Of a DNA stretch of 64,000 nucleotides, positions 4,540 to 63,956 are shown piece by piece. The DNA comes from Patescibacteria group bacterium. Its GTDB lineage: Bacteria; Patescibacteriota; Minisyncoccia; UBA6257; GWB1-50-10. How positions within the stretch are numbered: position 1 is the stretch's first letter; each line of letters begins with the position of its first letter. The notes below the pieces were generated by a model, which saw only the letters and a program-made list of their open reading frames with translations, did not search any database and was not told the origin of the DNA. Location of the stretch: positions 16,739 through 80,738 of the forward strand of contig JAMCYI010000011.1 of the NCBI GenBank assembly GCA_023474215.1, read 5' to 3'. Position numbers and translations under genes: made by a program.

Positions 4540-4699
4540 GAATTACCTCCTGTTCAAGAAATTCTTTTTCGTTATAAATATATGTAAATGTTCTTTTATC
4601 TCAGGCAAAACTTCTGTAAAAATCATACAATAAATGCGTCATGTTGTCAAAAACGGAAAAGAGGTTCAACTTTTTAAGCTGAACCTCTTTAAACAATGA

Positions 4700-14633: not shown

Positions 14634-14683
14634 CCACTACAAGAGTGGGCTTTGTATTTTGTGCGGCCAGGGAGAATCGGCTT
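14634..14683 (-). repeat. about 50-bp direct repeat copy 1 (hairpin cccact/agtggg plus the tRNA-Gly 3'-terminal 18 nt); the second copy is 14812..14861
   Basis: acccactacaagagtgggctttgtattttgtgcggccagggagaatcg occurs twice. The second copy overlaps the 3' end of the intact tRNA-Gly. Confidence 0.8.
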
Positions 14684-14811
14684 CGCCTCTCGCTGCGCTC
14701 GGGCTAGCCACCGCCTCGCGTCCCTCGACAAGCTCGGGGCATGCTCCGGCGTTCGATTCCCCACGTGAGCCAAGCAGTTAGCTCACTCTGGCCAGGCATA
14801 GAAAATACAAA
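14684..14811 (-). repeat. tRNA-attached GC-rich element, copy A (T-type family)
   Basis: Reverse complement contains the conserved core GGGGAATCGAACGCCGGAGCATGCCCCGAGCTTGTCGAGGGACGCGAGGCGGTGGCTAGCCCGAGCGCAGCGAGAGGCGAAG. It lies between tRNA-Gly and the duplicated tRNA-Gly 3' end. Confidence 0.7.
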
Positions 14812-14841
14812 ACCCACTACAAGAGTGGGCTTTGTATTTTG

Positions 14842-15273: not shown

Positions 15274-16002
15274 TCAATGTTGTTTACTATTATGCGACTT
15301 ATGAATTTGATAGTCGGGTATCCTAGAAAGGAATATGGCTTTGCGCTCCAGTCCTATTGGGAACCCAGGATAATACATATAGCGCAATAACTCATCGGAA
15401 TCTTTCATCCCATACCCCAACTTCAAAGAGGCGCCATTATTAAACACACCCAGCGCTTTCAATGGGAGATTGATTTCTTTCTTAAGGATGAACATAAGCT
15501 CTTCGAGAAACTTTCTGCTACCTGACGTAAAATTGGTCCTTAATTCACGAGCAGGTCGACCGTCCTTTGTTCTAATATACTCAACGAAGAAAACACTACC
15601 GTCGCCATCAAAATAGCCCCTTATAAAATCTCTTAAATATTTTCTTGGCACACGAGGAAAGGTAATGGTTTTACTTTTACGCCTGAATCCACCAAGTTTA
15701 GTTAAAGATCCATAGAGATGTTTCGAGTGAAAACTAACATGCCAAGCATCGTCCCCCTTGCTCCTCCTCACTGGATTAGTAGAGCTCATCGCAGACCTTA
15801 TATCCATCAGAATGTGCTTATCATTAGAGCACAACACCACCCTATATGATCGCTCCTTCCTCATATAACCGTCCGCAAACCAGAAACCAAGAATGTAAGC
15901 CATGGACGATGACCACTTATCAAAGAACTTCTCATTGAGGGTATACTTTCTACTGTGATATTTGCCTTGGGTTAATATCTTCACAAAAATATTATATCTC
16001 AA
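15274..16002 (-). CDS. LAGLIDADG homing endonuclease (double-motif)
   Basis: Two LAGLIDADG motifs, ILGFWFADGY and RGYFDGDGSV, about 100 aa apart. The longest ORF starts at TTG. MAYILGFWFADGY (Met at about 15904) is an alternative start. Confidence 0.8.
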   Translation of the reverse strand: MRYNIFVKILTQGKYHSRKYTLNEKFFDKWSSSMAYILGFWFADGYMRKERSYRVVLCSNDKHILMDIRSAMSSTNPVRRSKGDDAWHVSFHSKHLYGSLTKLGGFRRKSKTITFPRVPRKYLRDFIRGYFDGDGSVFFVEYIRTKDGRPARELRTNFTSGSRKFLEELMFILKKEINLPLKALGVFNNGASLKLGYGMKDSDELLRYMYYPGFPIGLERKAIFLSRIPDYQIHKSHNSKQH

Positions 16003-17994: not shown

Positions 17995-17996
17995 CA

Positions 17997-18136
17997 GGAG
18001 CGCATGCACGTGAACCGCTTCACGTGCATGAAGATTCGAACGCCGGAGCGTGTCCCGAGCTTGTCGAGGGACGCGAGGCGGTGCCCAGCCCGAGGCGCAA
18101 AGCCGAGAGGCGAGGGAGAATCCTTCCGCCTCCGCA
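17997..18136 (+). repeat. tRNA-attached GC-rich element, copy B (T-type), ending in an 18-nt duplicate of the tRNA-Ser 3' end
   Basis: 12-bp palindromic hairpin catgcacgtgaa-ccgc-ttcacgtgcatg. Conserved core AAGATTCGAACGCCGGAGCGTGTCCCGAGCTTGTCGAGGGACGCGAGGCGGTGCCCAGCCCGAGGCGCAAAGCCGAGAGGCGAGGGAG. Then aatccttccgcctccgca at 18119..18136, identical to the tRNA-Ser 3' terminus. Confidence 0.75.
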
Positions 18137-18141
18137 TTGAT

Positions 18142-18788: not shown

Positions 18789-18937
18789 CAATAAAGTAAA
18801 TTGAGAAGCGCGCAAACTGCTTTGCGCGCGTTTGGAATCGAACGCCGGAGCATGTCCCGACCTCGCCGAGGGACGCGAGGCGGTGCCCAGCCCGAGGCGC
18901 GAGCCGAGAGGCGAGGGAGATTCCTCTCGAGGGCACA
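18789..18937 (+). repeat. tRNA-attached GC-rich element, copy C (T-type), ending in an 18-nt duplicate of the tRNA-Arg 3' end
   Basis: Hairpin gcgcgcaaa-ctgc-tttgcgcgc. Core GGAATCGAACGCCGGAGCATGTCCCGACCTCGCCGAGGGACGCGAGGCGGTGCCCAGCCCGAGGCGCGAGCCGAGAGGCGAGGGAG. Then attcctctcgagggcaca at 18920..18937, which equals the tRNA-Arg 3' end. Confidence 0.75.
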
Positions 18938-18940
18938 AAA

Positions 18941-40228: not shown

Positions 40229-42616
40229 TTAGACGACGAGGTTAATGATCCTCCCTTTCACATATACCACTTTTTTGATCTTTGCGCTTCCGAGAGCGGC
40301 GGAAACGGTTTCGAGCTTCATTGCGGCTCCTTTCACTGCTTCTTCTTCCGCATCGTGAGGAACCATAACGCTCCCTCGCCGCTTGCCGTTCACCTGAACG
40401 ACGACTTCCACGGCTTCTTCTTTCAAAAGTTCGGGATCGTATGCTGGCCACGACTCGAAATGCACCGATTTCTTGTTCTTCAAGAGATGCCACAATTCGT
40501 CCGCGAGGTGCGGCGCGAACGGCGCGAGAATTTTCAAAAAATCGCTCCAAACGCCCGCCGGAACGGCCGCTTCGTCGCTTGTAGCATTTATAAAGACCAT
40601 CATGGAGCTTATGGCCGTATGGAACGCCATCTTTTCAATGTCGCCGCCGACCTTCTTCACCGTCGCAGCGAGAAGACGCTCGAGCTTTTCATTCCTCGCT
40701 TTTCCGATCTCTTTTTCGTGCGCAATATCCCACGTGCGCCACAAGAACCGCTTCACCCCTTCGATCCCTTTTGCGTCCCAAGCGATCGCCCGATCGAAAG
40801 GCCCCATGAACATTTCATAGACCCGCGCAACATCGGCGCCGTACGCCTCGACGATGGTATCGGGATTCACGACGTTGCCGCGCGATTTTGACATCTTGAC
40901 GCCCCCTTCCCCAAGGATCATTCCTTGCGCCGTCCGCTTTCGGTATGGTTCGCTCGTCGGGACAAGCCCTTGATCGTGGAGGAAAATGTTCCAGAAGCGT
41001 GAATAGAGCAAATGGAGCGTTACGTGTTCCATGCCGCCGTTGTACCAGTCGATCGGCATCCAGTATTTCAGCTTCTTCATCGAAGCAAATTCTTTCGCGT
41101 TCTTCGGATCGGCATATCGCAAAAAATACCAGCTCGATCCAGCCCAATTCGGCATCGTGTCCGTCTCGCGCTTCGCCTTTCCCATACATTTCGGACATCG
41201 GACGTTCACGAAACTCGCGACGGATGCCAAGGGTGATTCACCGTCATCGCGCGGTTGATAATTTTTGACGGGCGGCAGGACGACCGGCAAATCTTTGTCG
41301 GGGACCGGCACGTAGCCGCACGTTTCACAGTGAATGATCGGGATCGGCTCGCCCCAGTATCTTTGGCGCGAAAAGACCCAGTCGCGCAGATGGTAGTTCA
41401 CCGTCTTTTTTCCGCCGACAAATCTCGTGATCTCCGCTTTCGCCTGCTCGGAATCCATCCCGTCGAACTTCCCCGAATTCATAAGACTCCCCTTTCCCTC
41501 CCAAAGCTCGCCCGGCATTCCTCCCGAAACGACACGGACGACCGGCAGATTGAACTTCTTTGCAAACGCGAAATCGCGCACGTCGTGCGCGGGGACTGCC
41601 ATGATCGCACCCGTACCGTACTCGGCAAGGACATAGTCGGCGATCCATACCGGAATTTCCTTTCCATTCGCCGGATTCACCGCCGTGACGCCCTTGAGCT
41701 CGACGCCCGTTTTTTCCTTGTTCTCTGCGGTCCGCTCTTCTTCCGTTTCTTTCCGTGCGGCCTTCACGTATGATTCAACTTCCTTGAAGTTTGAAATTTT
41801 ATCCTTCAATTTCTCAACGAGTTCGTGTTCCGGCGCGAGGACCATATAGGTCGCGCCAAATAAGGTGTCGGGCCTGGTCGTAAATACCTTCATTCGGAGT
41901 GCGGAGTTCGAAATTCGAAATTCCAGTTCCGCCCCTTCGGATCGTCCAATCCAGTTCATCTGCTGCGCCTTGATCTCATCCAAATAATCGACGTGTTCCA
42001 AACCTTTCAGGAGCTTGTCGGCATACGCGGTGATCTTGAGCATCCATTGCGCCTTTTTCCGCTTCTCGACTTCCGCACCGCACCGCTCGCAATGCCCTGC
42101 GATCACTTCTTCGTTCGCGAGGCCGATCTTGTCATTTGGGCACCAATTGATATCGATTTCCGCTTTGTATGCCAAACCTTTTTTGAAAAATTGAAGGAAA
42201 AGCCACTGCGTCCATTTGTAATACTTCGGGTCGGTGGTGTTCACCTCGCGGCTCCAATCGAACGAAAATCCCAAGCTTTTGAGCTGTTTTCGGAAGGTCT
42301 CGGTGTTCTTTTTCGTCGCGACGCGCGGATCGACGCCCGTTTTGATGGCATAGTTCTCGGTGGGGAGTCCAAAAGCATCCCATCCGATCGGATAGAGCAC
42401 GTTATACCCCTCCATCCGCCGCTTGCGGGATACGATGTCCATGGCCGTAAGGCTCCGGATATGGCCGGTGTGGAGCCCTTGGCCGGACGGGTACGGGAAC
42501 TCGATGAGTGAATACCACTTTTTCTTTTTGGAAAAATCGACGGCCTTCCCGATGCCCAGTTTTTCCCATTCTTTCTGCCACTTCTTCTCGATCTTCTTGA
42601 AGTCGTACTTCGCCAT
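40229..42616 (-). CDS. leuS: leucyl-tRNA synthetase
   Basis: N-terminus KYDFKKIEKKWQKEWEK, HIGH-type PYPSGQGLHTGHIRS, KMSKS (VKMSKSRGN), CP1 editing-domain length. Confidence 0.9.
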   Translation of the reverse strand: MAKYDFKKIEKKWQKEWEKLGIGKAVDFSKKKKWYSLIEFPYPSGQGLHTGHIRSLTAMDIVSRKRRMEGYNVLYPIGWDAFGLPTENYAIKTGVDPRVATKKNTETFRKQLKSLGFSFDWSREVNTTDPKYYKWTQWLFLQFFKKGLAYKAEIDINWCPNDKIGLANEEVIAGHCERCGAEVEKRKKAQWMLKITAYADKLLKGLEHVDYLDEIKAQQMNWIGRSEGAELEFRISNSALRMKVFTTRPDTLFGATYMVLAPEHELVEKLKDKISNFKEVESYVKAARKETEEERTAENKEKTGVELKGVTAVNPANGKEIPVWIADYVLAEYGTGAIMAVPAHDVRDFAFAKKFNLPVVRVVSGGMPGELWEGKGSLMNSGKFDGMDSEQAKAEITRFVGGKKTVNYHLRDWVFSRQRYWGEPIPIIHCETCGYVPVPDKDLPVVLPPVKNYQPRDDGESPLASVASFVNVRCPKCMGKAKRETDTMPNWAGSSWYFLRYADPKNAKEFASMKKLKYWMPIDWYNGGMEHVTLHLLYSRFWNIFLHDQGLVPTSEPYRKRTAQGMILGEGGVKMSKSRGNVVNPDTIVEAYGADVARVYEMFMGPFDRAIAWDAKGIEGVKRFLWRTWDIAHEKEIGKARNEKLERLLAATVKKVGGDIEKMAFHTAISSMMVFINATSDEAAVPAGVWSDFLKILAPFAPHLADELWHLLKNKKSVHFESWPAYDPELLKEEAVEVVVQVNGKRRGSVMVPHDAEEEAVKGAAMKLETVSAALGSAKIKKVVYVKGRIINLVV

Positions 42617-42685
42617 TATCCAACTATTCTAACCAAAAAGGGTCTCTTTTCAAAGCCTTACTCTCAATGCCCCAATAATAAAAAA

Positions 42686-42828
42686 GGAAGGGGGATTGTT
42701 TTCGAGGAAGCTCTCGGAGCTCCGATTCGCTCGGTCCGCCGCAGAGGGGAACCGGAGCGAGAGCGCAGGGCGGCACTTGCCGCCGGAGCAAGTGAACGCC
42801 CGGTCCCGAGAAGACAATCTCCCTTCCG
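42686..42828 (-). ncRNA. structured GC-rich element, copy 1 (C-type family), closing stem plus U-run, upstream of leuS
   Basis: Outer stem ggaagggggattgttttcg / cgagaagacaatctcccttcc. Conserved internal blocks GAGGAAGCTCTCGGAG and GAGAGCGCAGGGCGGC...GGAGCAAGTGAACGCCCGGTCCCGAGAAG. On the minus strand the stem is followed by UUUUUUAUUAUU. Strand inferred. Confidence 0.55.
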
Positions 42829-42829
42829 A

Positions 42830-43501
42830 CTAAAACGTGAGGTCTTCCGGCGCGCTCACTTTTTTCCACCACGTCGCCTTCACGATCTTCACACTCTTCC
42901 CATCCCGCACCATTTGCGCCATGGTTTGCGGCAAACCGAATTCTTTCGAGCCCGGGTCCGCCTGGCGCAAGGGATAATCGAAATAGCTCATATCAAGGAC
43001 GTACGCGGCGGCGTTTTCAAGCATATCCTTTCGCGCTTCCGCTTGTTCGTCGATATCAAGCACGTTCCCCGATGCATCTGTTTTGATCTCCGCCCGATGC
43101 TCGCCCGGCGAGAAACGTTCGAGTTCGGCCGCGAGGATCGAAAGCGGGTATCGGACGAGCTCTTCAAGATCTTCTTTTGCGTACAAATCATCGCCCATCA
43201 AAACGAGAAATCGATCTTTTAAAACCGGCCGGCAAAGTCCGAGCGCGTGGCCCGTACCCTTGAGCTCTTTTTGTTCGATGTACGTTATTTTTTTGCCGGC
43301 ATATATTCCGTCAAAGGTCGCCTTAATCTGGTCGCCGAGGTATCCGATCACCATAACGACCTCCTCGACGGCGTCCGGGAGATTGTTCAACTTATATTCC
43401 AAAAGTGTTTTGTCACCGATCTTCAAAAGCGGCTTCGGCGTCCCTTTCGTGAGCTCCTTCATTCTTGTGCCGAGACCGGCCGCCAGTATGACTGCTTGCA
43501 T
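42830..43501 (-). CDS. sugar-phosphate nucleotidyltransferase
   Basis: N-terminal AVILAAGLGTRM...PKPLL signature. Confidence 0.75.
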   Translation of the reverse strand: MQAVILAAGLGTRMKELTKGTPKPLLKIGDKTLLEYKLNNLPDAVEEVVMVIGYLGDQIKATFDGIYAGKKITYIEQKELKGTGHALGLCRPVLKDRFLVLMGDDLYAKEDLEELVRYPLSILAAELERFSPGEHRAEIKTDASGNVLDIDEQAEARKDMLENAAAYVLDMSYFDYPLRQADPGSKEFGLPQTMAQMVRDGKSVKIVKATWWKKVSAPEDLTF

Positions 43502-47592: not shown

Positions 47593-48899
47593 ACCTTCAA
47601 TATATCAAGAAAGCTTCGTTTCTTGAAGGGGCCGATAACGGCCAAGTTCAACCGATCGTTCCGGATGATCTGCCCCATGACGCTCCGGATCTGGTCCGCC
47701 GTCACGGCATTGATGCTTTTCGCAACTTCCTGGGGGGTCGAAAGCTTCAAACCGAAGATCTCTTGCGCCGCATAAAAAGACGCCAGCTCATCGGATCCCT
47801 CGAGCGCCATGAATAAATTCCCGATGAGGTGCTCTTTGGCGCGCTTCAATTCTTGAACTCCCACCGGTTCTTTCGCTATTCGGTCGAATTCCTTGAGAGC
47901 TGCCTTCAATACCATATCGATCTTTTCATGTTCGACGCCGGCCGACATTTCGAGGAGTCCGTGATCGACATATAAGTCCGCGTCGGTACGCACATAGTAC
48001 GCCGCACCGAGTTCCTCGCGTACTTTTTGAAACAAGCGCGAGCTCATTCCCCCGCCCATGATATCGGCGGCGACTTGAAGGGGGTATCGCCGCTTGTCGA
48101 ACACGTCGAACGCCCGGAATCCCACAATCAAGTGCGATTGATCGACGTCTTTGAATGAAACGAGCTCTTTCGGCCTCCTTTGTGATTCTTTCGTTTTTGG
48201 TTTTGCGCCTTTCTTGCCCGCCGGTAACTCCTTGAAATAACCTTCGGTCTTCTTCAATAAGTCGCGCGTTGCATGCCCGCCGGAGATTGTCACGATCGTC
48301 GATTGCGGTAAGTAATGCCGTCCGCGGTAATCGACGAAGTCGTCACGCGTGAGGCGCCTGATGATCTCTTTCTTTCCGCCGATATCCCAACCAGCTGGCT
48401 GATCGCCATACACCAGATTCATAAAGAGCTCTGCGACCCGCCGCATCGGCGTGTCTTCGTACATATTGAGCTCTTGAATGATGACGCCCCGCTCTTTTTC
48501 GATTTCTTGATGCTCGAACGTCGGATCCAAATACATGTCTGCGACGACGTCCAAGATTTCTGCGGCGTTTTCATTCTTCGCTTTTGCGTAATAACTCGTT
48601 GATTCCTGCGACGTGAAAGCGTTGTATTGCGCGCCGAGCCCGTCGAGTTCGGCTGCAATATCCATTGCCGTGGGGCGCTTGTGCGTTCCCTTGAAGCACA
48701 TGTGCTCTAAGAAATGCGAAAGGCCGTTGATGTTCTTCGTTTCGTATTCCGATCCAGCTTCGACGGAAACCATGACGGTCGTCGTCAAATTTTGCGACTC
48801 CGGCACCAGGATCACCCGGAGGCCGTTTTTCAGTTTGAATCGTTGCGGTTTTGTCATGTGTTCATTATAACTGCTCAAAAAAGAAAACGACAAGCGCAC
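47589..48899 (-). CDS. M16-family zinc metallopeptidase (pitrilysin-like)
   Basis: Inverted zinc motif HFLEHMCFKGT with downstream E residues (EYETKNINGLSHFLEH). Confidence 0.8.
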   Translation of the reverse strand: MRLSFSFLSSYNEHMTKPQRFKLKNGLRVILVPESQNLTTTVMVSVEAGSEYETKNINGLSHFLEHMCFKGTHKRPTAMDIAAELDGLGAQYNAFTSQESTSYYAKAKNENAAEILDVVADMYLDPTFEHQEIEKERGVIIQELNMYEDTPMRRVAELFMNLVYGDQPAGWDIGGKKEIIRRLTRDDFVDYRGRHYLPQSTIVTISGGHATRDLLKKTEGYFKELPAGKKGAKPKTKESQRRPKELVSFKDVDQSHLIVGFRAFDVFDKRRYPLQVAADIMGGGMSSRLFQKVREELGAAYYVRTDADLYVDHGLLEMSAGVEHEKIDMVLKAALKEFDRIAKEPVGVQELKRAKEHLIGNLFMALEGSDELASFYAAQEIFGLKLSTPQEVAKSINAVTADQIRSVMGQIIRNDRLNLAVIGPFKKRSFLDILKV

Positions 48900-48931
48900 G
48901 CTTGTCGTTTCCTCCGTCGAACCAATTGAAT

Positions 48932-49910: not shown

Positions 49911-51248
49911 TCACCTCAAGTGCTCTTTGAGATATGCCTCCAATTCTCCGATCTTCACCCGCTCCTGCCGCATGGTATCGCGGTCGCGGACGGTCACGTC
50001 GTCCTGTTCCAGACTGTCGAAATCGACGGTGACGCAGAAGGGCGTCCCCGCTTCGTCCTGCGTGCGGTATCGCTTGCCGATATTCCCCCGGTCGTCCCAC
50101 GCAACCATCATGTCTTTTTTCAAATCGTCGTAGATCTTCTTCGCGGTTTTCACGAGATCGGGCTTATTCGCGAGGAGCGGAAAGACCGCCGCCTTGTACG
50201 GCGCGAGACGCGGATGCACATGAAGCACCGTCCTCGTTTCTCCCTCTTTCACCTTTTCTTCCTCATATGCATTCATAAGGAAAAAGAGCGTCGCCCGATC
50301 CACGCCGCCGGATGTTTCAATGATGTGCGGCAGGAATTTTTCTTTCGTTTCTTCGTCAAAGTACGCCATATCTTCGCCCGAAAATTCCTGGTGCCTTCTC
50401 ACGTCCCAATCGCCGCGGTGATGGATGCCCTCCATCTCTTTCCACTCGCCCTCCGCGTTATACTCAATATCGAATGCCGCCTTCGCATAGTGTGCAAGCT
50501 CGTCTTTTGCGTGTTCCTTGAGCCGCAAATTCTCCTCCTTCATGCCGAGCGAAACATACCAATCCATCCGTTTTTTCTTCCAGTACTCAAAAACTTCCAT
50601 CGACTGCTTGAGATCGGGACGGACATAATACTGAAGTTCCATCTGTTCGAATTCGCGCGAACGGAACGTGAAGCCGCCGGGCGTGATCTCGTTCCGGAAG
50701 GCTTTGCCGATCTGCGCGACGCCGAACGGGATTTTCACGCGCGTCGAGCTCAAAACATTTTTGAAATTCACGTGGACGCCCTGCGTGATCTCGCCCCGCA
50801 AGTATGTCTTTTGCTTTTCGCCTTCGATGACGCCGAGGTACGTTTCAACCATCAAATTGAACTGCTTCGGTTCCGTCCAGTCACTCGCGCCGCACGTTGG
50901 GCACTTGACGTCTTTCGAAATTCGAAATTCGCCATTCGGAATTCCGATTTCGTCCTCGCGAAATCGGGCATGGCATTTTTTGCACTCGACGAGCGGATCG
51001 GAAAAGGACGTCAAATGCCCCGAGGCTTCCCACACCTTCGGGTTCATGATGATCGCGGCATCGAGGCCAACGACATCGCTTCGTTCCTGGACCATCGATC
51101 TCCAAAATTCGTTCTTGATATTGCGCTTCAGTTCCGCTCCGAGGGGGCCGTAATCCCACGTGCCCGCGAGACCGCCGTAGATCTCGCTCCCGGGAAAAAT
51201 GAACCCGCGGCGCTTGGCCAAACTCGCCACTTTTTCCCAAATGTCCAT
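49911..51248 (-). CDS. glyQS: glycyl-tRNA synthetase (alpha2 dimeric type)
   Basis: RRGFIFPGSEIYGGLAGTWDYGPLG N-terminus, class II motifs. Start trimmed to MDIWEKVASLAKRRGF inside ORF 49911..51317. Confidence 0.9.
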   Translation of the reverse strand: MDIWEKVASLAKRRGFIFPGSEIYGGLAGTWDYGPLGAELKRNIKNEFWRSMVQERSDVVGLDAAIIMNPKVWEASGHLTSFSDPLVECKKCHARFREDEIGIPNGEFRISKDVKCPTCGASDWTEPKQFNLMVETYLGVIEGEKQKTYLRGEITQGVHVNFKNVLSSTRVKIPFGVAQIGKAFRNEITPGGFTFRSREFEQMELQYYVRPDLKQSMEVFEYWKKKRMDWYVSLGMKEENLRLKEHAKDELAHYAKAAFDIEYNAEGEWKEMEGIHHRGDWDVRRHQEFSGEDMAYFDEETKEKFLPHIIETSGGVDRATLFFLMNAYEEEKVKEGETRTVLHVHPRLAPYKAAVFPLLANKPDLVKTAKKIYDDLKKDMMVAWDDRGNIGKRYRTQDEAGTPFCVTVDFDSLEQDDVTVRDRDTMRQERVKIGELEAYLKEHLR

Positions 51249-51577
51249 GTACTCAATTGTAAATGAAAAACTATTCTCTTGCCAAACCGAGGAGACGGAT
51301 TTCCAATGCTCCGGCAATATTCACTCGGGGGGTATTGGAAATCTCAAAAGTAATGGCAACGCCCCCCGAACGAGTATTGCTGGAATGAGCGTCAAAATCA
51401 CCGAAGCTTTGAGGAAGGAGCAGGAAAAGAGGACTGTTTGAATCCCGAAGCGGAGCGAGGTTGAGTTCCGCATTTTCCGTTACGCATGACGATAAGCGAG
51501 GATGATTTTAGCGAATGGAGGCCTATGAGAGAGGAGGGTGTTGCCATTCCCTCTTGAGGAGAAAAATGAAGAAAGTC
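51249..51577 (-). promoter_or_regulatory. about 330-nt untranslated leader upstream of glyQS with long-range pairing potential
   Basis: A 7-bp G/C stem (cgggggg...ccccccg) encloses about 30 nt. The distal aatggcaac segment is complementary to the gttgccatt segment inside that hairpin. No T-box consensus. Confidence 0.3.
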
Positions 51578-53371
51578 CTACTGAGTAACGACGCCGGAAC
51601 CCGGCGCAACGCTCGAGTCGTCCGGCAAAGCCGTCGTCACCGGCCCCGCGGAGATGTTCACGGTCGCGCCCGTAAAGTTATCCGTTGCCTGAAGATTGCT
51701 CGCGCCCAGAAGACCTTCATACGAACCGATAAAATCTGAGCTCGGCGTCGCCGAAACTTGAAACACGGCTTCTGCCGGACCGCCGAGGAACCCGCTTCCG
51801 GCAAAGATATTCCCGATGTTCCACACCATGCTTTCGGTCGACGTGTCGTATGAAATCGAAGATGATGCAACCGTCGTCGTCGCAAAACCAGTCCAGGTAA
51901 CGCCCGTCGGAAGCGGAGCCGACACGACGGCATTGCTCAAGTCGTTCCCAAAATCGCTGATCTTCCAGTGAATCGAGTACTCCGTGGCACTCCCGACGTG
52001 GGGCGGGAAAGGACCCGAGTTTTGCACGGCGGACGACGGATCGTTTGTATAACCTTTTGCGCTGAAGTAAACCAAACTCGAGATCTTCGTTTCTTCCGTC
52101 GTTTCAGCGAACGTTTGATTGCCGGACACGTAGTACGGCACCGACGGCGATGAAAGTACGACATCTGCTTTGACATACAAATTCTTATTCGAAAGTCCCT
52201 GCAGGGAAACGGGCGCGGAGAGCGTCGTCGAAAGGGTAAGGTTCAAACTTCCGACCGTGCTGGGTTCGACGAACGCGAGGGCCGGCGTCGTCGATGAATT
52301 CCACGTCACGGTTCTTGTCGAAGGATTGAAAATTCCGTCCGTCTTCACGCTCGACCAGTCCGCAAAACCGGAAAGGATCGCTTTCACGACGACATCCTTC
52401 AAAGCGATCCCGCTTTGATTGTTGTACTGGATCGAATAGTTCAACGTATCCACCGGCTTTGCGACGTAATTGTCCGATCCGTTCACGGTGACACTCACGC
52501 CGATCGGCGAAGGTGAAAGGGAAAACGTGGCTTGGTAGTCGGCAATGTCGTAGTTTTGGCCGTTCAAAACGGCGTACAGCTTCAAGGGTATCGTAAATGA
52601 AGAGGCGCTTGAGTCGGTGAATACCCCCTTGATGGTTACGGTTCCGGTCGCGTTCGCCGCAGCCGAACCGAGCGCGAAGGTGTTGGCGAGGGTCGCAGCC
52701 GGAGCGCTCGCCGACTTGAATTGAAACGAACTCGGGAAGTCCGCTTCGAGGATCATCGCGGGAAAATTAAAATCGGAACTGTTGGCATAATTGACATCGA
52801 ACGAAAGGGCGGAGCCGTTCAATATTTGATCCGGCTTTGTAACGCTCATTGCGACGGCCGAATTGGATAAAAGAACTTTCACTTCTTGCTTCACCTCGAA
52901 GCGGCTTCCCGTTTGATTGAAATAAAAGAACGAAACGTCCAATGTTTGGCTGGAATTCAAATCGCCGACCGGGATCACTTGATAGCTCTTTTTCACGAGA
53001 TCTCCAACCCCTACGTCGCCTGTATTTTCCGAGTAAACGCTTCCGCTCGTCGTCGAGTTCCAAATCAAAAGTCCGTTCGAGAGGGTTACGGCGATCGACG
53101 AGTTCGTGATCGGATTGCCGGACACGTTCGTTATGTTGAGATCCAGTTCGAAAGGAACCCCGCGCGAGACGTCGGTCGGCGCCGTGACTTCCAAATCGAC
53201 CCCCTTCGGCTGATTCAAGTAGTACGTAATGAACGCAACGCCGGCGATGATCACGGCGAGGCCGACGAAGATCATTCCCCAAAGGACTTTGGGGATCCAA
53301 GCCGAAACCGTCCTCTTGGCGGAGGACTTTCTGAATTTTTTCAATCTTTTTTCTATATCCGAGATTGCCAT
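51578..53371 (-). CDS. large membrane-anchored surface protein with repeated beta-sandwich domains
   Basis: N-terminal anchor VLWGMIFVGLAVIIAGVAFITYYL. S/T/N-rich repeated segments. No catalytic motif. Confidence 0.45.
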   Translation of the reverse strand: MAISDIEKRLKKFRKSSAKRTVSAWIPKVLWGMIFVGLAVIIAGVAFITYYLNQPKGVDLEVTAPTDVSRGVPFELDLNITNVSGNPITNSSIAVTLSNGLLIWNSTTSGSVYSENTGDVGVGDLVKKSYQVIPVGDLNSSQTLDVSFFYFNQTGSRFEVKQEVKVLLSNSAVAMSVTKPDQILNGSALSFDVNYANSSDFNFPAMILEADFPSSFQFKSASAPAATLANTFALGSAAANATGTVTIKGVFTDSSASSFTIPLKLYAVLNGQNYDIADYQATFSLSPSPIGVSVTVNGSDNYVAKPVDTLNYSIQYNNQSGIALKDVVVKAILSGFADWSSVKTDGIFNPSTRTVTWNSSTTPALAFVEPSTVGSLNLTLSTTLSAPVSLQGLSNKNLYVKADVVLSSPSVPYYVSGNQTFAETTEETKISSLVYFSAKGYTNDPSSAVQNSGPFPPHVGSATEYSIHWKISDFGNDLSNAVVSAPLPTGVTWTGFATTTVASSSISYDTSTESMVWNIGNIFAGSGFLGGPAEAVFQVSATPSSDFIGSYEGLLGASNLQATDNFTGATVNISAGPVTTALPDDSSVAPGSGVVTQ

Positions 53372-60379: not shown

Positions 60380-61828
60380 TTATCCATTTGTATCCAACCA
60401 CCTTTTTACGTATCCGTTAAATTTCTCTCCTCTGTCAAACTCGTTTTTGAATTTTTCGAAGCTCGCAGCGCCGGGAGAGAAGAGAACAACCACAGGGTTT
60501 AGGGGATAGGGTTTAGGGGATAGGGTTTTTACCCTTTCCACAATCGATTCGAGATCTTCAAATAGTTGGGGTCCCCCTTTTTTGAAGTAATTCTGCTTCT
60601 TCAGTTCGGCAATAAGCCTTTTCGTCGCGCTGCCGTTCAAGAAAAAAACATCTCCCGACGGAAGCGCGCTCCGTATCTCCTTCGCGAGCGGTTTAAAATC
60701 GAGATTTTTGTCCGTCCCGCCGGTTATTAAGATCAGCCGGCCGTTACCATGGAACCTCCGAATGGCAGCCATCACGGCATCGGGTGACGTTGCCGCCGAG
60801 TCGTTGACCACCCGCAAGCCTTCCTTTTCGAGGATTATCTCCTCCCGGTACTTTATCTCCGGCAAACTCCTCACTGCCGCCGCGATCTCGAACCAAGAAA
60901 TGCCGGCGAGGTGCGCAGCAAGGGCTGCGGCCATGAGATTTATCACATTATGTTCTCCCCTCTTTCGAGTCAACGAAACCGCACCCTCCGATATCACTTC
61001 TTCACTCCGTCCATTTTCTTGGAAAAACAAAGAGCCGTTCTTCAGGAAAATCCCGTTCTTGCTTTTCGATAAGCGTCTCAGGGAAAAGAAATAGATCTTT
61101 GCCTTCGGATGTAGTTTCAGGAAAAATGCGGTCCATCGGCTGTCGCCATTCAAAACCAGCTTTTGATCCTTCTTTTGCCCCTTGAAGATGTTCGCTTTCG
61201 CGCGCGCGTAATCTTCCATTTCTCTATAACGATTCAAATGGTCCGAAGAAAGGTTCGTTATGACGGCGATTTCCGGTGCATACTTCGACCCCGGCAAGCG
61301 TTCCAGATGCCACGACGAAAGTTCAACGACCACCGGCGTTTTCGTGCTTTTCAGCCGATCCGCCAAATCAAGAAGTGCAAGATTTGATGAATTTCCCGCA
61401 GCAGCGACATTTTTATTTCTTGTCCGCAAAAAATGAGCTACCCAATTTGTCGTGGTCGTTTTTCCCCGAGTTCCCGTGACAGCGATCACCGGATTTTCCA
61501 CGACATCAAAGAATATTCGCGCATCATTCACCAAAAGCCGCTTCCGCTTCTTTGCAACGGCGAGGTATTCGCTTTCGCGCCGCACGGCTGGATTCACGAC
61601 AATGATGTCGTTCCATTCAAAATCTTCCTTCCGATGTTCGCCAAGAATGAACTTTATTTTTTTCGCCGCGCTTCCGAGCGATCGGATCGAAGCCTCGAGC
61701 TCGCTTTTCGTCCGCATATCGGTCACCGTGACACGGGCGCCGTGGCGCACGAGCCATTTGGCCGTCGCAACGCCGCCGCCCAGGACCCCGAGTCCCATCA
61801 CTAAAACTTTTTTATCCTTAAGATTCAT
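60380..61828 (-). CDS. murD: UDP-N-acetylmuramoyl-L-alanine--D-glutamate ligase
   Basis: Rossmann N-terminus KKVLVMGLGVLGGGVA, Mur ligase P-loop VTGTRGKTTT, C-terminal LFSPGAASFEKFKNEFDRG. A 36-nt G-rich repeat is embedded in frame near the 3' end (60495..60530). Confidence 0.85.
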   Translation of the reverse strand: MNLKDKKVLVMGLGVLGGGVATAKWLVRHGARVTVTDMRTKSELEASIRSLGSAAKKIKFILGEHRKEDFEWNDIIVVNPAVRRESEYLAVAKKRKRLLVNDARIFFDVVENPVIAVTGTRGKTTTTNWVAHFLRTRNKNVAAAGNSSNLALLDLADRLKSTKTPVVVELSSWHLERLPGSKYAPEIAVITNLSSDHLNRYREMEDYARAKANIFKGQKKDQKLVLNGDSRWTAFFLKLHPKAKIYFFSLRRLSKSKNGIFLKNGSLFFQENGRSEEVISEGAVSLTRKRGEHNVINLMAAALAAHLAGISWFEIAAAVRSLPEIKYREEIILEKEGLRVVNDSAATSPDAVMAAIRRFHGNGRLILITGGTDKNLDFKPLAKEIRSALPSGDVFFLNGSATKRLIAELKKQNYFKKGGPQLFEDLESIVERVKTLSPKPYPLNPVVVLFSPGAASFEKFKNEFDRGEKFNGYVKRWLDTNG

Positions 61829-61846
61829 ACCTTCTATTAATTATAA

Positions 61847-61986
61847 GAAAAACCATGTTATTTTGAGGCAGCTCTCGGAGGCGAGCAAGCTTGGTTCCCC
61901 GGAAGGGATTGCGAGCCGAGAGCGCAGGGCGGCCTTGGCCGCTGGAGCCAAGGAACGTCCGGTGCCGAAAAGTAACATGGTTTTTT
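61847..61986 (-). ncRNA. structured GC-rich element, copy 2 (C-type family), closing stem plus U-run, between the H+-PPase gene and murD
   Basis: Outer stem aaaaccatgttattttg / cgaaaagtaacatggtttt. Same conserved blocks as copy 1 (GAGGCAGCTCTCGGAG; GAGAGCGCAGGGCGGCCTTGGCCGCTGGAGCCAAGGAACGTCCGGTGCCGAAAAG). Minus-strand reading ends in UUUUUCUU just before the murD RBS. Strand inferred. Confidence 0.55.
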
Positions 61987-61988
61987 GC

Positions 61989-63956
61989 TTAAAGGAACGG
62001 AACGATGAGGAGAGCCACAATGTTGATAACCTTGATAAGCGGGTTAATCGCGGGACCTGCGGTATCCTTATACGGATCGCCGACGGTGTCTCCCGTAACG
62101 GCAGCCTTATGAGCATCCGACCCCTTGCCGCCGAAGTTGCCCGATTCGATGTATTTCTTTGCATTATCCCACGCGGCTCCACCAGAAGTCATGGAAATCG
62201 CGATGAAAAGTCCCGAGACGATCGTGCCGATCAAGAACCCGCCGAGGGCCTCCTTTCCCAAAACGAATCCAACGAGGAGCACCATCGCGACCGGCAAAAG
62301 CGCCGGAACAATCATTTCTCGGAGCGCCGACTTCGTCACGATGTCGACGGCCTTCTTATAATCGGGTTTCGCCGAACCCTCGAGAAGTCCCTTGATTTCC
62401 CGAAACTGCCTCCGGATTTCTTCGACAATCGAGCCGGCCGCCTTACCGACCGATTTCATGGCCATCGATCCGAATAGATAGGGAATCGAAGCTCCTAAAA
62501 TGAGGCCGATTAAGACGTATGGGTTTTGAATATCGAACGTGACATTCGAAGAGATTTTTTGAACCGCGTCTGTGTATGCACTAAAAAGCACAAGTGCGGC
62601 GAGCCCGGCCGATGCGATGGCATATCCTTTCGTTACCGCTTTCGTGGTGTTCCCGACGGCATCCAAGGCATCTGTGATCTTCCGGACCTCTTCCGGAGCA
62701 CCGCTCATTTCGGCGATACCGCCGGCATTATCCGTGATCGGCCCAAATGAATCAATGGAAACGATGATGCCGGCAACGGAAAGCATCGAAACAGCGGCGA
62801 TGGCGATGCCATAGATGCCCGCAAGCAAGTATGATCCAATGATGCCGGCAACGATGACAAGAATCGGCAGGAAGGTCGCTTCCATACCAACCGAAAGGCC
62901 AATAATGATGTTTGTTCCATGCCCCGACTTCGAAGCGTCGGCGATGTTCTTCACCGGCTTGTACTTTTTCGAAGTGTAATAATCCGTGATGACGACCATG
63001 AGAGCCGTTACGAGAAGACCGATAAGGCTCGAAAGAAATATATTCATGGCATTCCCTCCCATGAATGACTGAGCGGCAAAATAGAATAAGATCGCTGCCA
63101 CAATCAAGGCGACAGCGAGCCCTTTGTAGAGTGCACCCATAATTGATTCGCTTGTACCGAGCTTCACAAAGAAACTTCCGATGATTGAAGCAATAATCGC
63201 AAGGCCGCCCATGACGAGCGGAAAGATGAGTTGGGCACCGGAAAGCGCAAGTGCGCTTCCGATCAAAATCGAAGCGGTCAAGGTCACCGCGTACGTCTCA
63301 AAAAGATCGGCGGCCATGCCGGCGCAGTCGCCGACATTGTCGCCGACATTGTCGGCGATCACGCCCGGATTCCGCGGATCATCTTCCGGAATGCCGGCTT
63401 CAACTTTCCCGACTAAATCGGTTCCGACATCCGCCGCTTTCGTAAAGATGCCACCGCCGAGGCGGGCAAAAACAGAGATTAAGCTCGCGCCGAATCCAAG
63501 ACCGATCAAACTCCGGACATCATGCGTCAAAAGGAAGAATCCTGAAACCGCAAGAAGACCAAGACCGACGACAAGGAGTCCCGTGACCGATCCGGCCTTG
63601 AAGGCGAGCGAGAGCGCCGATTTCAACCCTCGGCTCGCTGCGTCCGTCGTTTTCGAGTTCGATCGGACGGCGACGCTCATGCCGAGAAATCCCGCGAGAG
63701 CCGAAGCGATCGAGCCGACCAAAAATCCCACGGCCGTCAGCCAGCCGAGCGCGAGGTAAATTGCGACGAAAAGAATGACCGCAACGACCCCAACCGTTTT
63801 GTACTGCCGCCCAAGATATGCGGATGACCCTTCTTGGATCGCTCTCGAAATCTCTTTCATTTTATCGCTCCCCGAACCCTGCTTTTTGAGCCAGAACGCA
63901 AGGTATCCGGTATAGAGAACTGCAAGAATGACGGGGCCGAAAATCAAATAATTCAT
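61989..63956 (-). CDS. hppA: membrane-bound proton/sodium-translocating pyrophosphatase
   Basis: [55 protein letters not shown] is the hallmark cytoplasmic loop. About 16 TM helices. Confidence 0.9.

Follow-up and report, generated by a model that had tools for sequence, protein, structure and literature searches.

We analysed a 64,000-nucleotide stretch of a Patescibacteria group bacterium genome (GenBank assembly GCA_023474215.1, contig JAMCYI010000011.1, positions 16,739 to 80,738 of the forward strand), hereafter the window, with a focus on two intergenic elements of about 140 nt, el1 (42686..42827) and el2 (61848..61985). The first-pass annotation of this DNA had picked out both elements, and we verified their coordinates and the sequence that they have in common, namely a 5' block, GAGGNAGCUCUCGGAG, and a 3' block of about 55 nt. 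El1 sits between two minus-strand genes, an NTP_transferase gene (42830..43501), whose stop codon (42830..42832) adjoins it, and leuS (40229..42616), the gene that follows el1 on the gene strand. Read on the plus strand, the element consists of a closing helix, P1, whose 5' strand (GGAAGGGGGATTGTTTTC, 42686..42703) pairs with its 3' strand (42810..42827) and is locus-specific, unlike P1 elsewhere, and of a core unit (AGCUCUCGG ... CCCGAGA, 42709..42811) that forms a three-way junction. Within the core, the P3 arm (42710..42764) carries the bulges GGA and GCUCGGU (the latter at 42729..42735), the P4/P5 arm (42768..42801) is backed by structure and covariation, and the 3' strand of P2 (42804..42807) by covariation of that helix. 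Between the end of P1 and the stop codon of the convergent NTP-transferase gene lie 2 nt; on the minus strand P1 is followed by the U-tract UUUUUU (42680..42685), and 8 of the 10 plus-strand bases upstream of P1 are A. A promoter-like site for leuS, TTGAAA-16-TAGAAT (42626..42653, minus strand), lies downstream of el1 on the gene strand. Judging from this anatomy, P1 and the U-tract would end the NTP-transferase transcript ahead of a separate leuS promoter. The el1 locus is kept in four genomes, across which flanking DNA identity falls to about 70%, and the flanking genes have diverged more than its core.

El2 has a P1 5' strand (AAAAACCATGTTATTTT, 61848..61864) that pairs with 61969..61985, a core unit (61870..61970), and P3 (61871..61923), P4/P5 (61927..61960) and P2 (61867..61870 with 61963..61966), all on the plus strand and the last three backed by structure and covariation. 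The 3' strand of P1 ends 3 nt before the stop codon (61989..61991) of the adjoining minus-strand H+/Na+-pyrophosphatase gene (61989..63956), and on the gene strand the start of a murD-like Mur ligase gene (60380..61828, minus strand) follows el2 after about 20 nt. By the same anatomical argument, P1 and its U-rich tail near 61840 would end the H+-PPase transcript ahead of murD. NusA-PPase-MurD is a conserved synteny of housekeeping genes, and the H+-PPase→murD junction can be compared in relatives, where it holds a 22-nt spacer in one genome (L094), a plain 20-bp hairpin at the el2 site in another (L092) and other elements in two more (L093 and L095). Relatives whose proteins are 86-90% identical do not have this element at the murD junction.

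Copies of the element and the fold of its core

A scan of a genome collection returned 39 matches, among which are about 27 further true copies in about 10 Patescibacteria MAGs, with up to 9 copies per genome. Most copies were recovered by an exact 21-base pattern taken from the 3' block, while three copies inside tgt entered the set via protein homologs. Because the pattern was used to retrieve copies, the constancy of its 21 bases follows in part from the search itself; the fixed pattern bases do not include P1, P2, P3a/b or P5. The family is so far confined to Patescibacteria of the Paceibacteria/Minisyncoccia type. Rfam 15 gave no non-tRNA match at the gathering threshold across the window; at E<=10, el1 had no match, and the matches near el2 were at chance level and outside the element. 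Neither window copy is assigned to a known family by cmscan, and eight related loci had no Rfam match either. BLAST searches of phage records found no match to the element, those of plasmid records found a single marginal partial match, and pattern scans of viral contigs gave chance matches in coding sequence only.

The core unit, about 103-108 nt long, folds on the plus strand as a three-way junction whose bulges and loops are conserved, and the plus strands of el1 and el2 fold more stably than dinucleotide shuffles (z of -5.3 and -5.5). Across the 27 copies from other genomes, 95.1% of the cells that should pair do so (70.2% in shuffles), and the covariation score is 0.715, compared to 0.216 in shuffled sequences and 0.12-0.19 when the pairing partners are slid. 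Both sides have changed in 29 of the 44 pairs of the structure. P4 (GGGCG/CGCCC) and the 7-bp P5 covary strongly, with 10-15 double changes per pair in P5, and the P2 helix, GG[A/C]A / U[U/G]CC, is backed by an AU pair in 14 copies and a CG pair in 10. The proposal of a conserved structured family is thus borne out by covariation in genomes beyond the window. Two details of the fold suggested at first were revised. The middle hairpin had been called fully divergent, and its sequence does vary between copies, but it contains a conserved (A)GCUYGGU bulge and the GGA bulge. The proposed inner hairpin, GGCGGC-tetraloop-GCCGCC, shows no covariation, is equalled by 123 of 500 shuffles and is incompatible with the covarying P4 and P5, and we dropped it. 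Our findings confirm that el1 and el2 are genuine copies of a structured non-coding repeat of ultra-small Patescibacteria that had not been described before.

The constrained strand and related elements

The first reading of the elements was made on the minus strand, which leads into leuS and murD. Both the G·U and A·C counts (70 vs 25, p = 4e-6), which place the plus strand under folding constraint, and the folding energies, which are lower for the plus strand in 28 of 31 copies, favour the opposite strand. This constrained plus strand is antisense to leuS and murD. A corollary of the G·U bias is that P1, when copied into gene-strand RNA, has C·A mismatches; there the stem encloses about 105 nt, bears these mismatches and then runs into the U-tract in el1 and el2. 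The minus-strand U-runs noted at the outset are real in both window copies; overall, only 9 of the 17 intergenic copies have a U-rich tail on the gene strand. The minus strand has at least two open frames in 23 of the 27 copies.

An sRNA gene with its own terminator had also been suggested. On the plus strand, a consistent scan of 17 copies found a sigma-70-like promoter upstream of P1 in none of them and a U-tail after P1 in none, which speaks against such a gene. A plus-strand promoter, TTGAAG-N16-18-CAATAA, had looked plausible by eye in el1 and its orthologs and failed the same scan. Since the constrained strand is not co-transcribed with the neighbouring genes and has no promoter or terminator of its own, the structure is most likely that of folded single-stranded DNA; a rare antisense RNA would be the alternative.

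Some copies lie in a context, 'GCCGCUCGCUCUC...CCGAGACGGUUUG', that we at first suspected to be 23S rRNA. Rfam found no rRNA there, and the context turned out to be a sister family, 'B', on the opposite strand. These 'B' elements (AAACACGCUAU... on the reverse strand) belong to the same family as el1 and el2: the covariance model finds six B copies with E-values of 2e-9 to 4e-6 (33-45 bits), the same order of arms and a more stable plus strand. The element is also found inside a homologous B element, one arm of which houses it in the opposite orientation. The kinship first proposed with a tRNA-attached family of elements did not gain statistical support. Local alignment of the two cores, rotated or not, gave z of about 0 to 3 against dinucleotide shuffles, and covariance model R1 found no match at the tRNA-attached loci. 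Kinship by circular permutation was rejected as well, being not significant against shuffles and pairing predicted helices that do not correspond. The traits that the two families have in common are only architectural, namely a locus-specific closing helix and occurrence in the same genomes. In the tRNA-attached elements, the T arm of the preceding tRNA, whichever it is, recurs as an exact antisense copy, together with a direct repeat of the 3' part of that tRNA.

Closing helices, hairpin sites and copies inside tgt

The outer helices of el1 and el2 (18 and 17 bp) are unlike in sequence and complementary in each element, which had been taken as strong covariation. Our comparisons divide this claim in two. 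Orthologous copies do stay paired while diverging, but most of the variation reflects a different hairpin at each locus: P1 identity between copies averages 0.34, and two copies with identical cores (L006 and L038, 99/99) agree at only 5 of 36 P1 positions. El2 and a copy in a sister genome (L022) are likewise identical at 93 of 95 core positions and 8 of 36 in P1. Such pairs, with identical cores and unrelated flanks, were used to set the boundaries of the core unit. When the core was removed in silico, a near-perfect hairpin of 15-23 bp with a 6-8-nt loop remained in all 27 copies. The long, apparently covarying closing helices can thus stem from lodging in different hairpins and not from compensation in RNA, a caution for motif discovery. 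Plain 15-bp hairpins also occur in this window, one of them with a T-run.

In intergenic copies, the P1 hairpin begins 0-4 nt past the stop codon of an opposite-strand gene. At 9 independent loci P1 adjoins the stop codon of the opposite-strand gene, and it never adjoins that of a same-strand gene. The flanking genes are unrelated between copies and include those for H+-PPase, patatin, DUF4012, Map, M23, transketolase and NTP-transferase. Together, the orthologous sites compared here show that the core has been gained, lost and overwritten, as such sites are filled, hairpin-only or empty. One candidate empty site was set aside: at the site orthologous to the L009 copy, the window has a different 260-nt spacer, which blurs the comparison. 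That all intergenic copies have the same antisense orientation counts against a mobile repeat.

Identical cores on unrelated helices had seemed to prove transposition. We downgraded this argument, as L038 has a mismatch in P2 that fits gene conversion; core replacement can therefore give the same pattern, which could come wholly from gene conversion among old copies without new insertions. Three Colwellbacteria copies have P1 in common (36/36 and 30/36), so that either the helix can travel with the core or these copies are segmental duplicates. No direct repeat indicative of target-site duplication was found at the boundaries of el1, el2, L006, L038 or L022. We also considered that P1 arises by snap-back inverted duplication of the flank, which fits poorly with the Colwellbacteria copies that share P1 and with the nested copies.

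The element also occurs in frame inside tgt, where the ORF is kept open (L043 and about 20 homologs), with a predicted insert of 38-55 aa in Tgt. About 20 of 45 tgt orthologs carry it, all in one surface loop and mostly in antisense orientation, with three in sense. Other tgt alleles are hairpin-only (L044 and L049) or empty (L046 and L050). Because the relatives without the element mostly have no hairpin at all, any pre-existing hairpin target in tgt would be conjectural. In one pair of tgt alleles (P0011/P0008), a stretch of 10 nt is the complement of loop sequence in the hairpin-only allele, a hint of snap-back.

Origin of the repeat

We favour the reading, at a probability of roughly 0.55, that el1 and el2 are copies of a mobile or recombining repeat that is non-autonomous, constrained in its structure and lodged in hairpins of the terminator type. 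Among the three functions first put forward, a MITE-like mobile repeat under RNA-level selection comes closest to this. The core occupies the apical loop of a locus-specific hairpin of 15-23 bp; in about half of the intergenic copies, a U-rich tail on the gene strand gives this hairpin, by its sequence, the form of an intrinsic terminator. A recombinase or transposase encoded elsewhere would act in trans on the folded core, in the manner of REP/RAYT, the ends of IS200/IS605, integron attC or the ssr9 module of ISPpu9, and new copies would arise by insertion into existing hairpin loops or by conversion between copies. A Pfam scan of the 60 window ORFs found no transposase, integrase, RT or HUH domain; the only matches related to recombination or mobility were a LAGLIDADG endonuclease and RecO. 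To our knowledge, descriptions of repeats or mobile elements are scarce for the tiny, streamlined genomes of Patescibacteria. A structure-constrained, multi-copy element that occupies terminator hairpins is unexpected there, as are its in-frame tolerance inside tgt, an essential tRNA-modification gene, and its higher conservation than that of the surrounding genes.

The element resembles Rickettsia palindromic elements (RPE), REP sequences or attC sites, yet matches none of them. RPE, as Ogata et al. 2000 reportedly described them, occur between genes and in frame inside protein-coding genes. Going by this description, the likeness extends to a non-coding repeat of about 100-150 nt that folds into a long hairpin-like structure, to positions both intergenic and in frame in genes (here tgt) with the ORF preserved, to restriction to small-genome bacteria and to the lack of a transposase of its own. 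The differences are that the conserved part here is a branched three-way-junction core within a locus-specific closing helix, that folding is strongly strand-asymmetric, that the preferred site is a hairpin adjoining a stop codon, and that the host belongs to another phylum. Like MITEs (Correia/NEMIS, RUP and BOX), the element is short, multi-copy, non-autonomous and co-transcribed with its neighbours, and can supply or alter terminators. MITEs have family-wide terminal inverted repeats and target-site duplications, whereas here the repeat is locus-specific and there is no flanking duplication.

Systems that lodge in REP sequences offer a further parallel. RAYT and IS200-IS605 Y1 transposases act with REP/BIME sequences (PMC3333891, PMC2817692), and IS1397-type elements insert into REP (PMC1525189). 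The small-RNA module ssr9 of the IS110-family element ISPpu9 is regarded by its authors as selfish in its own right, moving via minicircles (PMC12288879). The parallels are landing sites in extragenic palindromes at the 3' ends of genes, small non-coding modules spread in trans by an IS-encoded enzyme, orientation-specific insertion and, for the Y1 enzymes, strand-specific recognition of folded DNA. In the present family, the core has a fixed position in the hairpin loop. Within a genome, REP stems share their sequence; here it is the insert that is conserved, and each stem is unique. Searches of the 64-kb window and of the surroundings of the copies (loci of 2-12 kb) found no gene for RAYT, IS200/605 or IS110.

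Selection for a host function could also keep the copies, either as a terminator-embedded 3'-end module for the stability or processing of the upstream mRNA or as antisense sRNAs, with homogenisation of the core by gene conversion in either version. We consider this possible, if unlikely. The conserved bulges and loops within covarying stems are as in a protein- or ligand-binding RNA, el1 is retained at an orthologous site in four genomes with P1 paired while diverging, and the flanking coding DNA is less conserved than the core. The regular placement directly past stop codons would suit such a role, and the arm mosaics between copies, like the P2 mismatch in L038, suit gene conversion. However, the strand selected for folding is antisense to the adjoining genes and has no detectable promoter or terminator, and the site is empty or otherwise occupied in close relatives. 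The in-frame tgt copies, present in both orientations, and the nesting in a sister element are hard to reconcile with a locus-specific role.

The reading as a mobile repeat can be taken further, to a new kind of hairpin-loop-homing mobile nucleic acid, whose enzyme would recognise the three-way junction of the core in folded single-stranded form and place it in the loop of any long hairpin. We offer this doubtful extension tentatively; with equal reserve, we suggest that terminators, the arms of the sister element and a coding-sequence hairpin would all be targets of one such process. If true, it would, with the tRNA-attached family, suggest that Patescibacteria have an integration system of their own, either guided by structure or programmed by a guide. 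Should a mobilising enzyme come to light, it might be an integrase of a new type, directed by structure or by a guide and acting on a very small substrate.

We regard as improbable a third explanation, in which the element is no transposon at all and is instead an attC-like, structure-specific recombination site that marks gene-cassette boundaries and is read as a folded single strand. As in attC, the element lies directly after the stop codon of the upstream ORF, the folded strand is antisense to that ORF, the architecture is conserved while the stems vary in sequence, and the size is similar (attC 57-141 nt). GC skew suggests that the folded strand is on the leading-strand template, and in chromosomal integrons the folded strand is likewise on the leading-strand template. 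Every copy that we read, however, lacks the R''/R' boxes (RYYYAAC ... GTTRRRY) at the base of P1, and conservation is apical, opposite to the basal conservation of attC. Copies are single and form no cassette arrays, their flanks are syntenic housekeeping genes (NusA-PPase-MurD) and not cassettes, and neither IntI nor any other integrase domain is present in the window. The attenuator or riboswitch leader of leuS and murD that the first-pass annotation had proposed is hardly tenable: both window copies do precede a minus-strand gene and end in a hairpin and U-run, but a promoter-like site belonging to leuS lies between its start codon and el1, relatives have an empty or otherwise occupied murD junction, the up- and downstream genes differ at all other loci, the constrained strand is the opposite one, and copies lie within the coding gene tgt.

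The covariance model and about 30 sequences are now usable for annotating Patescibacteria MAGs, where the element otherwise lengthens Tgt and inflates ORF calls, as with an 82-aa ORF that overlaps el1.

Architecture and distribution of a new covariation-supported repeat family

The two elements near leuS (el1, 42686..42827) and murD (el2, 61848..61985), each spanning an outer helix plus shared blocks, align as described in the first-pass annotation, with a common 5' block (GAGGNAGCUCUCGGAG) followed by a variable arm and a common 3' block of ~55 nt. The claim that their outer helices are unlike in sequence and still complementary also held, as the 18-bp helix of el1 and the 17-bp helix of el2 are wholly different and each is self-complementary. 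Both elements fold far better than dinucleotide shuffles, and the Rfam comparison suggested in that annotation assigned neither to a family, even at E<=10. Mechanical ORFs of 82 aa and 113 aa run through el1 (42624-42872, minus strand) and el2 (61841-62182, minus strand), respectively, because the minus strand of the element is almost without stop codons (23 of 27 copies have two or more open frames on it), and gene callers may list such ORFs as hypothetical proteins.

The search for further copies, also suggested earlier, was run by scanning one genome per prokaryotic species with the 3'-block pattern, which returned 39 loci. About 27 of these qualify as true copies, showing a span fixed at 45 nt and the complete architecture, and the remainder are chance matches in high-GC genomes. 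All true copies lie in Patescibacteria MAGs (Colwellbacteria, Niyogibacteria, "bacterium" bins, and bins labelled Saccharibacteria), with up to nine copies per genome, and nothing comparable to the element was found in the viral contigs, phage records, and plasmid records searched. Since most copies were fetched through 21 fixed 3'-block bases, the invariance of these bases is partly by construction; three copies in tgt were instead reached via protein homologs.

A MAFFT alignment with RNAalifold and a model-based alignment of 27 copies support a three-way junction. Every pair varies in the outer closing helix P1 (~18 bp), which encloses P2, formed by GG[A/C]A and U[U/G]CC (AU in 14 copies, CG in 10); a P3 arm built, in order, of a GCUCUC/GAGAGC stem that never varies, a GGA bulge, P3a (variable), the conserved bulge (A)GCUYGGU, and P3b (also variable); and a P4-P5 arm with GGGCG/CGCCC, a GAA bulge, a 7-bp P5, and a conserved loop CCGCYGGAG. 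P5 shows 10-15 double changes per pair, paired cells reach 95.1% compared to 70.2% in shuffles, and the covariation score is 0.715 compared to 0.216 when shuffled and 0.12-0.19 with slid partners. On the other hand, the GGCGGC-tetraloop-GCCGCC hairpin proposed earlier finds no covariation support and cannot form together with P4/P5, which covary strongly. Its GGCGGC and GCCGCY segments (42769-42786 and 61928-61945; columns 103-118 of alignment A4) could pair in 88% of cells, a pairing on which covariation cannot decide because neither segment varies much. Copies conserve the potential for either pairing, and the GGCGGC/GCCGCY one may represent an alternative conformation or a tertiary contact.

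Core exchange and turnover at orthologous sites

Comparing copies revealed that cores are exchanged between loci. Two copies in one genome, L006 and L038, are identical at 99/99 core positions and match at only 5/36 in P1, while el2 and the L022 copy agree at 93/95 and 8/36 positions, respectively; the block of core identity runs from AGCUCUCGG to CCGAGA and ends abruptly. The P2 of L038 sets a "GGCA"-type 5' strand opposite a "UUCC" 3' strand, a mismatch indicating that its core was overwritten, and arms are shared among copies in mosaic fashion. Together, these findings indicate that cores move or convert between loci without regard to the closing helix. Copying can also take in the helix, since three copies in one Colwellbacteria MAG (L008:6592-6755, L016:865-1028, and L024:4353-4516) share the whole of P1 (36/36 and 30/36) as well as the core, with different flanks at L016; this seems to be the only such case. 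Our main alternative, which we consider less likely, is an RNA family that serves the host and is kept uniform by conversion. We instead regard the element as a new variant among the palindromic or miniature mobile repeats of other bacteria, set apart by a branched core that is conserved, closing hairpins that differ by locus, and strand-specific folding.

The family model also detected a homologous sister family, "B", which keeps the arm order, is closed by a locus-specific helix of its own, and on the reverse strand reads AAACACGCUAU...GCCGCUCGCUCUC...CCGAGACGGUUUG. Copies lie at L022:1009-1168 (-), L022:3000-3161 (-), L038:4374-4536 (+), L011:605-765 (+), L027:6499-6660 (+), and L006:6364-6536 (+), and none was found in the window. 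At five loci (L009, L013, L026, L027, and L036), an el1/el2-type element is nested in the P3b arm of "B" in opposite orientation.

The element is polymorphic at orthologous sites. Four genomes have a filled el1 site, with flanking DNA identity as low as ~70%, and P1 diverges there yet stays paired. NusA-PPase-MurD synteny is conserved among relatives, while the PPase-to-murD spacer is a plain hairpin of unrelated sequence in L092 (PPase protein identity 90%), a different structured element in L093 (88%), 22 nt without a hairpin in L094 (86%), and a large unrelated element with a different downstream gene in L095 (80%). These differences mark el2 as a lineage-specific occupant of the spacer. 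Further structured intergenic elements were seen at gene junctions (L095:3190-3460, L092:3290-3320, L009:470-560 and nearby, and window 51310-51578), some with closing sequences CCCGUUAGAA...UUCUAACGGG. The window example involves the spacer between a class II aaRS gene (49911..51317, glyS-like by eye) and its neighbor, a spacer with long inverted repeats at 51310-51384 and 51352-51548. Several distinct structured-element families seem to coexist in these genomes.

Hairpins, stop codons, and the constrained strand

After in silico deletion of the core (~103-108 nt), every one of the 27 copies still had a near-perfect 15-23-bp hairpin, its loop 6-8 nt long. At nine independent loci, the end of P1 falls 0-4 nt from an opposite-strand gene's stop codon, and P1 never abuts a same-strand gene. 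The element is lodged in long hairpins beside stop codons; el1 lies 2 nt from that of an NTP-transferase (42830..42832) and el2 3 nt from that of an H+-pyrophosphatase (61989..61991). Plain hairpins the size of an emptied P1 occur at about 4655..4692, where a T-run follows in terminator-like fashion, and at about 48880..48913, and a relative carries a plain 20-bp hairpin at the position of el2. P1 and the U-tract of el1 and el2 would then act as terminators for the genes upstream.

All intergenic copies are antisense, and the plus strand, which carries GAGAGCGCAGGG, is in the window antisense to leuS, murD, and their upstream genes. It is the constrained strand: its fold is the stabler of the two strands' in 28 of 31 copies (as a rule by 6-15 kcal/mol), and helices contain 70 G·U compared to 25 A·C (p = 4e-6). 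Among 17 intergenic copies, the plus strand showed neither a sigma-70-like site upstream of P1 nor a U-rich tail after it (0/17 each), while the gene strand has such a tail in nine; the plus strand is thus without its own promoter or terminator. A leader or riboswitch serving one class of genes, as earlier suggested for leuS and murD, is excluded by this antisense placement, by unrelated neighbors at other copies (patatin, DUF4012, methionine aminopeptidase, M23 peptidase, and transketolase), and by leuS's own predicted promoter (TTGAAA-16-TAGAAT) between el1 and its start codon.

The element also sits in frame within tgt, in both orientations. In L043 and L033 it lies inside the tgt gene (PF01702) with the ORF open, and about 20 of ~45 Patescibacteria Tgt proteins with a delimitable loop carry a 38-48-aa insert in one common surface loop. 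Most are antisense (peptide ...GTGRSS.PA.EAALRS...LREL....), and in three the plus strand is sense (...ERERRAAPAAGAGERLVPRDD...). Core-less alleles have a 16-aa loop; two retain a hairpin at the insertion site, namely a 12-bp perfect inverted repeat in the L044 tgt gene (1501-2682) and an 8-9-bp stem in that of L049 (501-1679), and others have none. In the L044/L045 pair, the two alleles differ in that the filled one additionally contains the core and a 10-nt segment able to pair with the loop that is left. Rickettsia palindromic elements likewise lodge in frame inside genes and keep the ORF open, and the element resembles them in this behavior. Directly upstream of one element-less tgt, a 125-aa ORF (L050:124-501) weakly matches RVT_1 (reverse transcriptase).

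None of the 60 window ORFs contains a transposase, integrase, reverse-transcriptase, or HUH domain, and the only recombination- or mobility-related matches are a LAGLIDADG endonuclease and RecO; the element, if mobile, is non-autonomous. An enzyme acting in trans probably recognizes the structure as folded single-stranded DNA, for which REP/RAYT elements, IS200/IS605 ends, attC sites, and the ssr9 module of ISPpu9 offer parallels (PMC12288879, PMC3333891, PMC1525189).

A separate family attached to tRNA genes

The first-pass annotation was right in its observation and partly supported in its interpretation: a structured repeat is confirmed, a leader is contradicted, and kinship with the tRNA-attached elements is not supported. 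Similarity between the two families is not above chance and the el1/el2 covariance model does not find the tRNA-attached elements, so we keep the families apart. The tRNA-attached copies of the window lie at 17996-18138 (+), 18790-18938 (+), and 14650-14812 (-), follow tRNA-Ser, tRNA-Arg, and tRNA-Gly, and share one plan with 13 metagenomic copies (L054, L056, L060, L062, L065, L067-L070, L072, L077, L079, and L084). An intact tRNA, in some copies a terminator, and a short segment pairing with the acceptor 3' strand are followed by a hairpin, whose loop is usually ACUGCU, and an exact antisense of that tRNA's T arm (positions 53-65), to which the "GAAC" of these elements belongs as anti-GTTC. 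The plan closes with a conserved core and then the 3' part of the tRNA, directly repeated from position 56/57; in the Gly copy, the repeated stretch measures 48 nt and takes in the terminator. This layout looks like an element integrated at the tRNA T loop that may carry its own guide or att mimic specific to the tRNA, and L070 seems to be a tandem pair. A low-GC ORF of 242 aa (15274-16002, minus strand) with a LAGLIDADG_3 domain (E = 1.5e-10) stands free between tRNA-Leu and tRNA-Cys and is a homing-endonuclease-like gene within the tRNA cluster.
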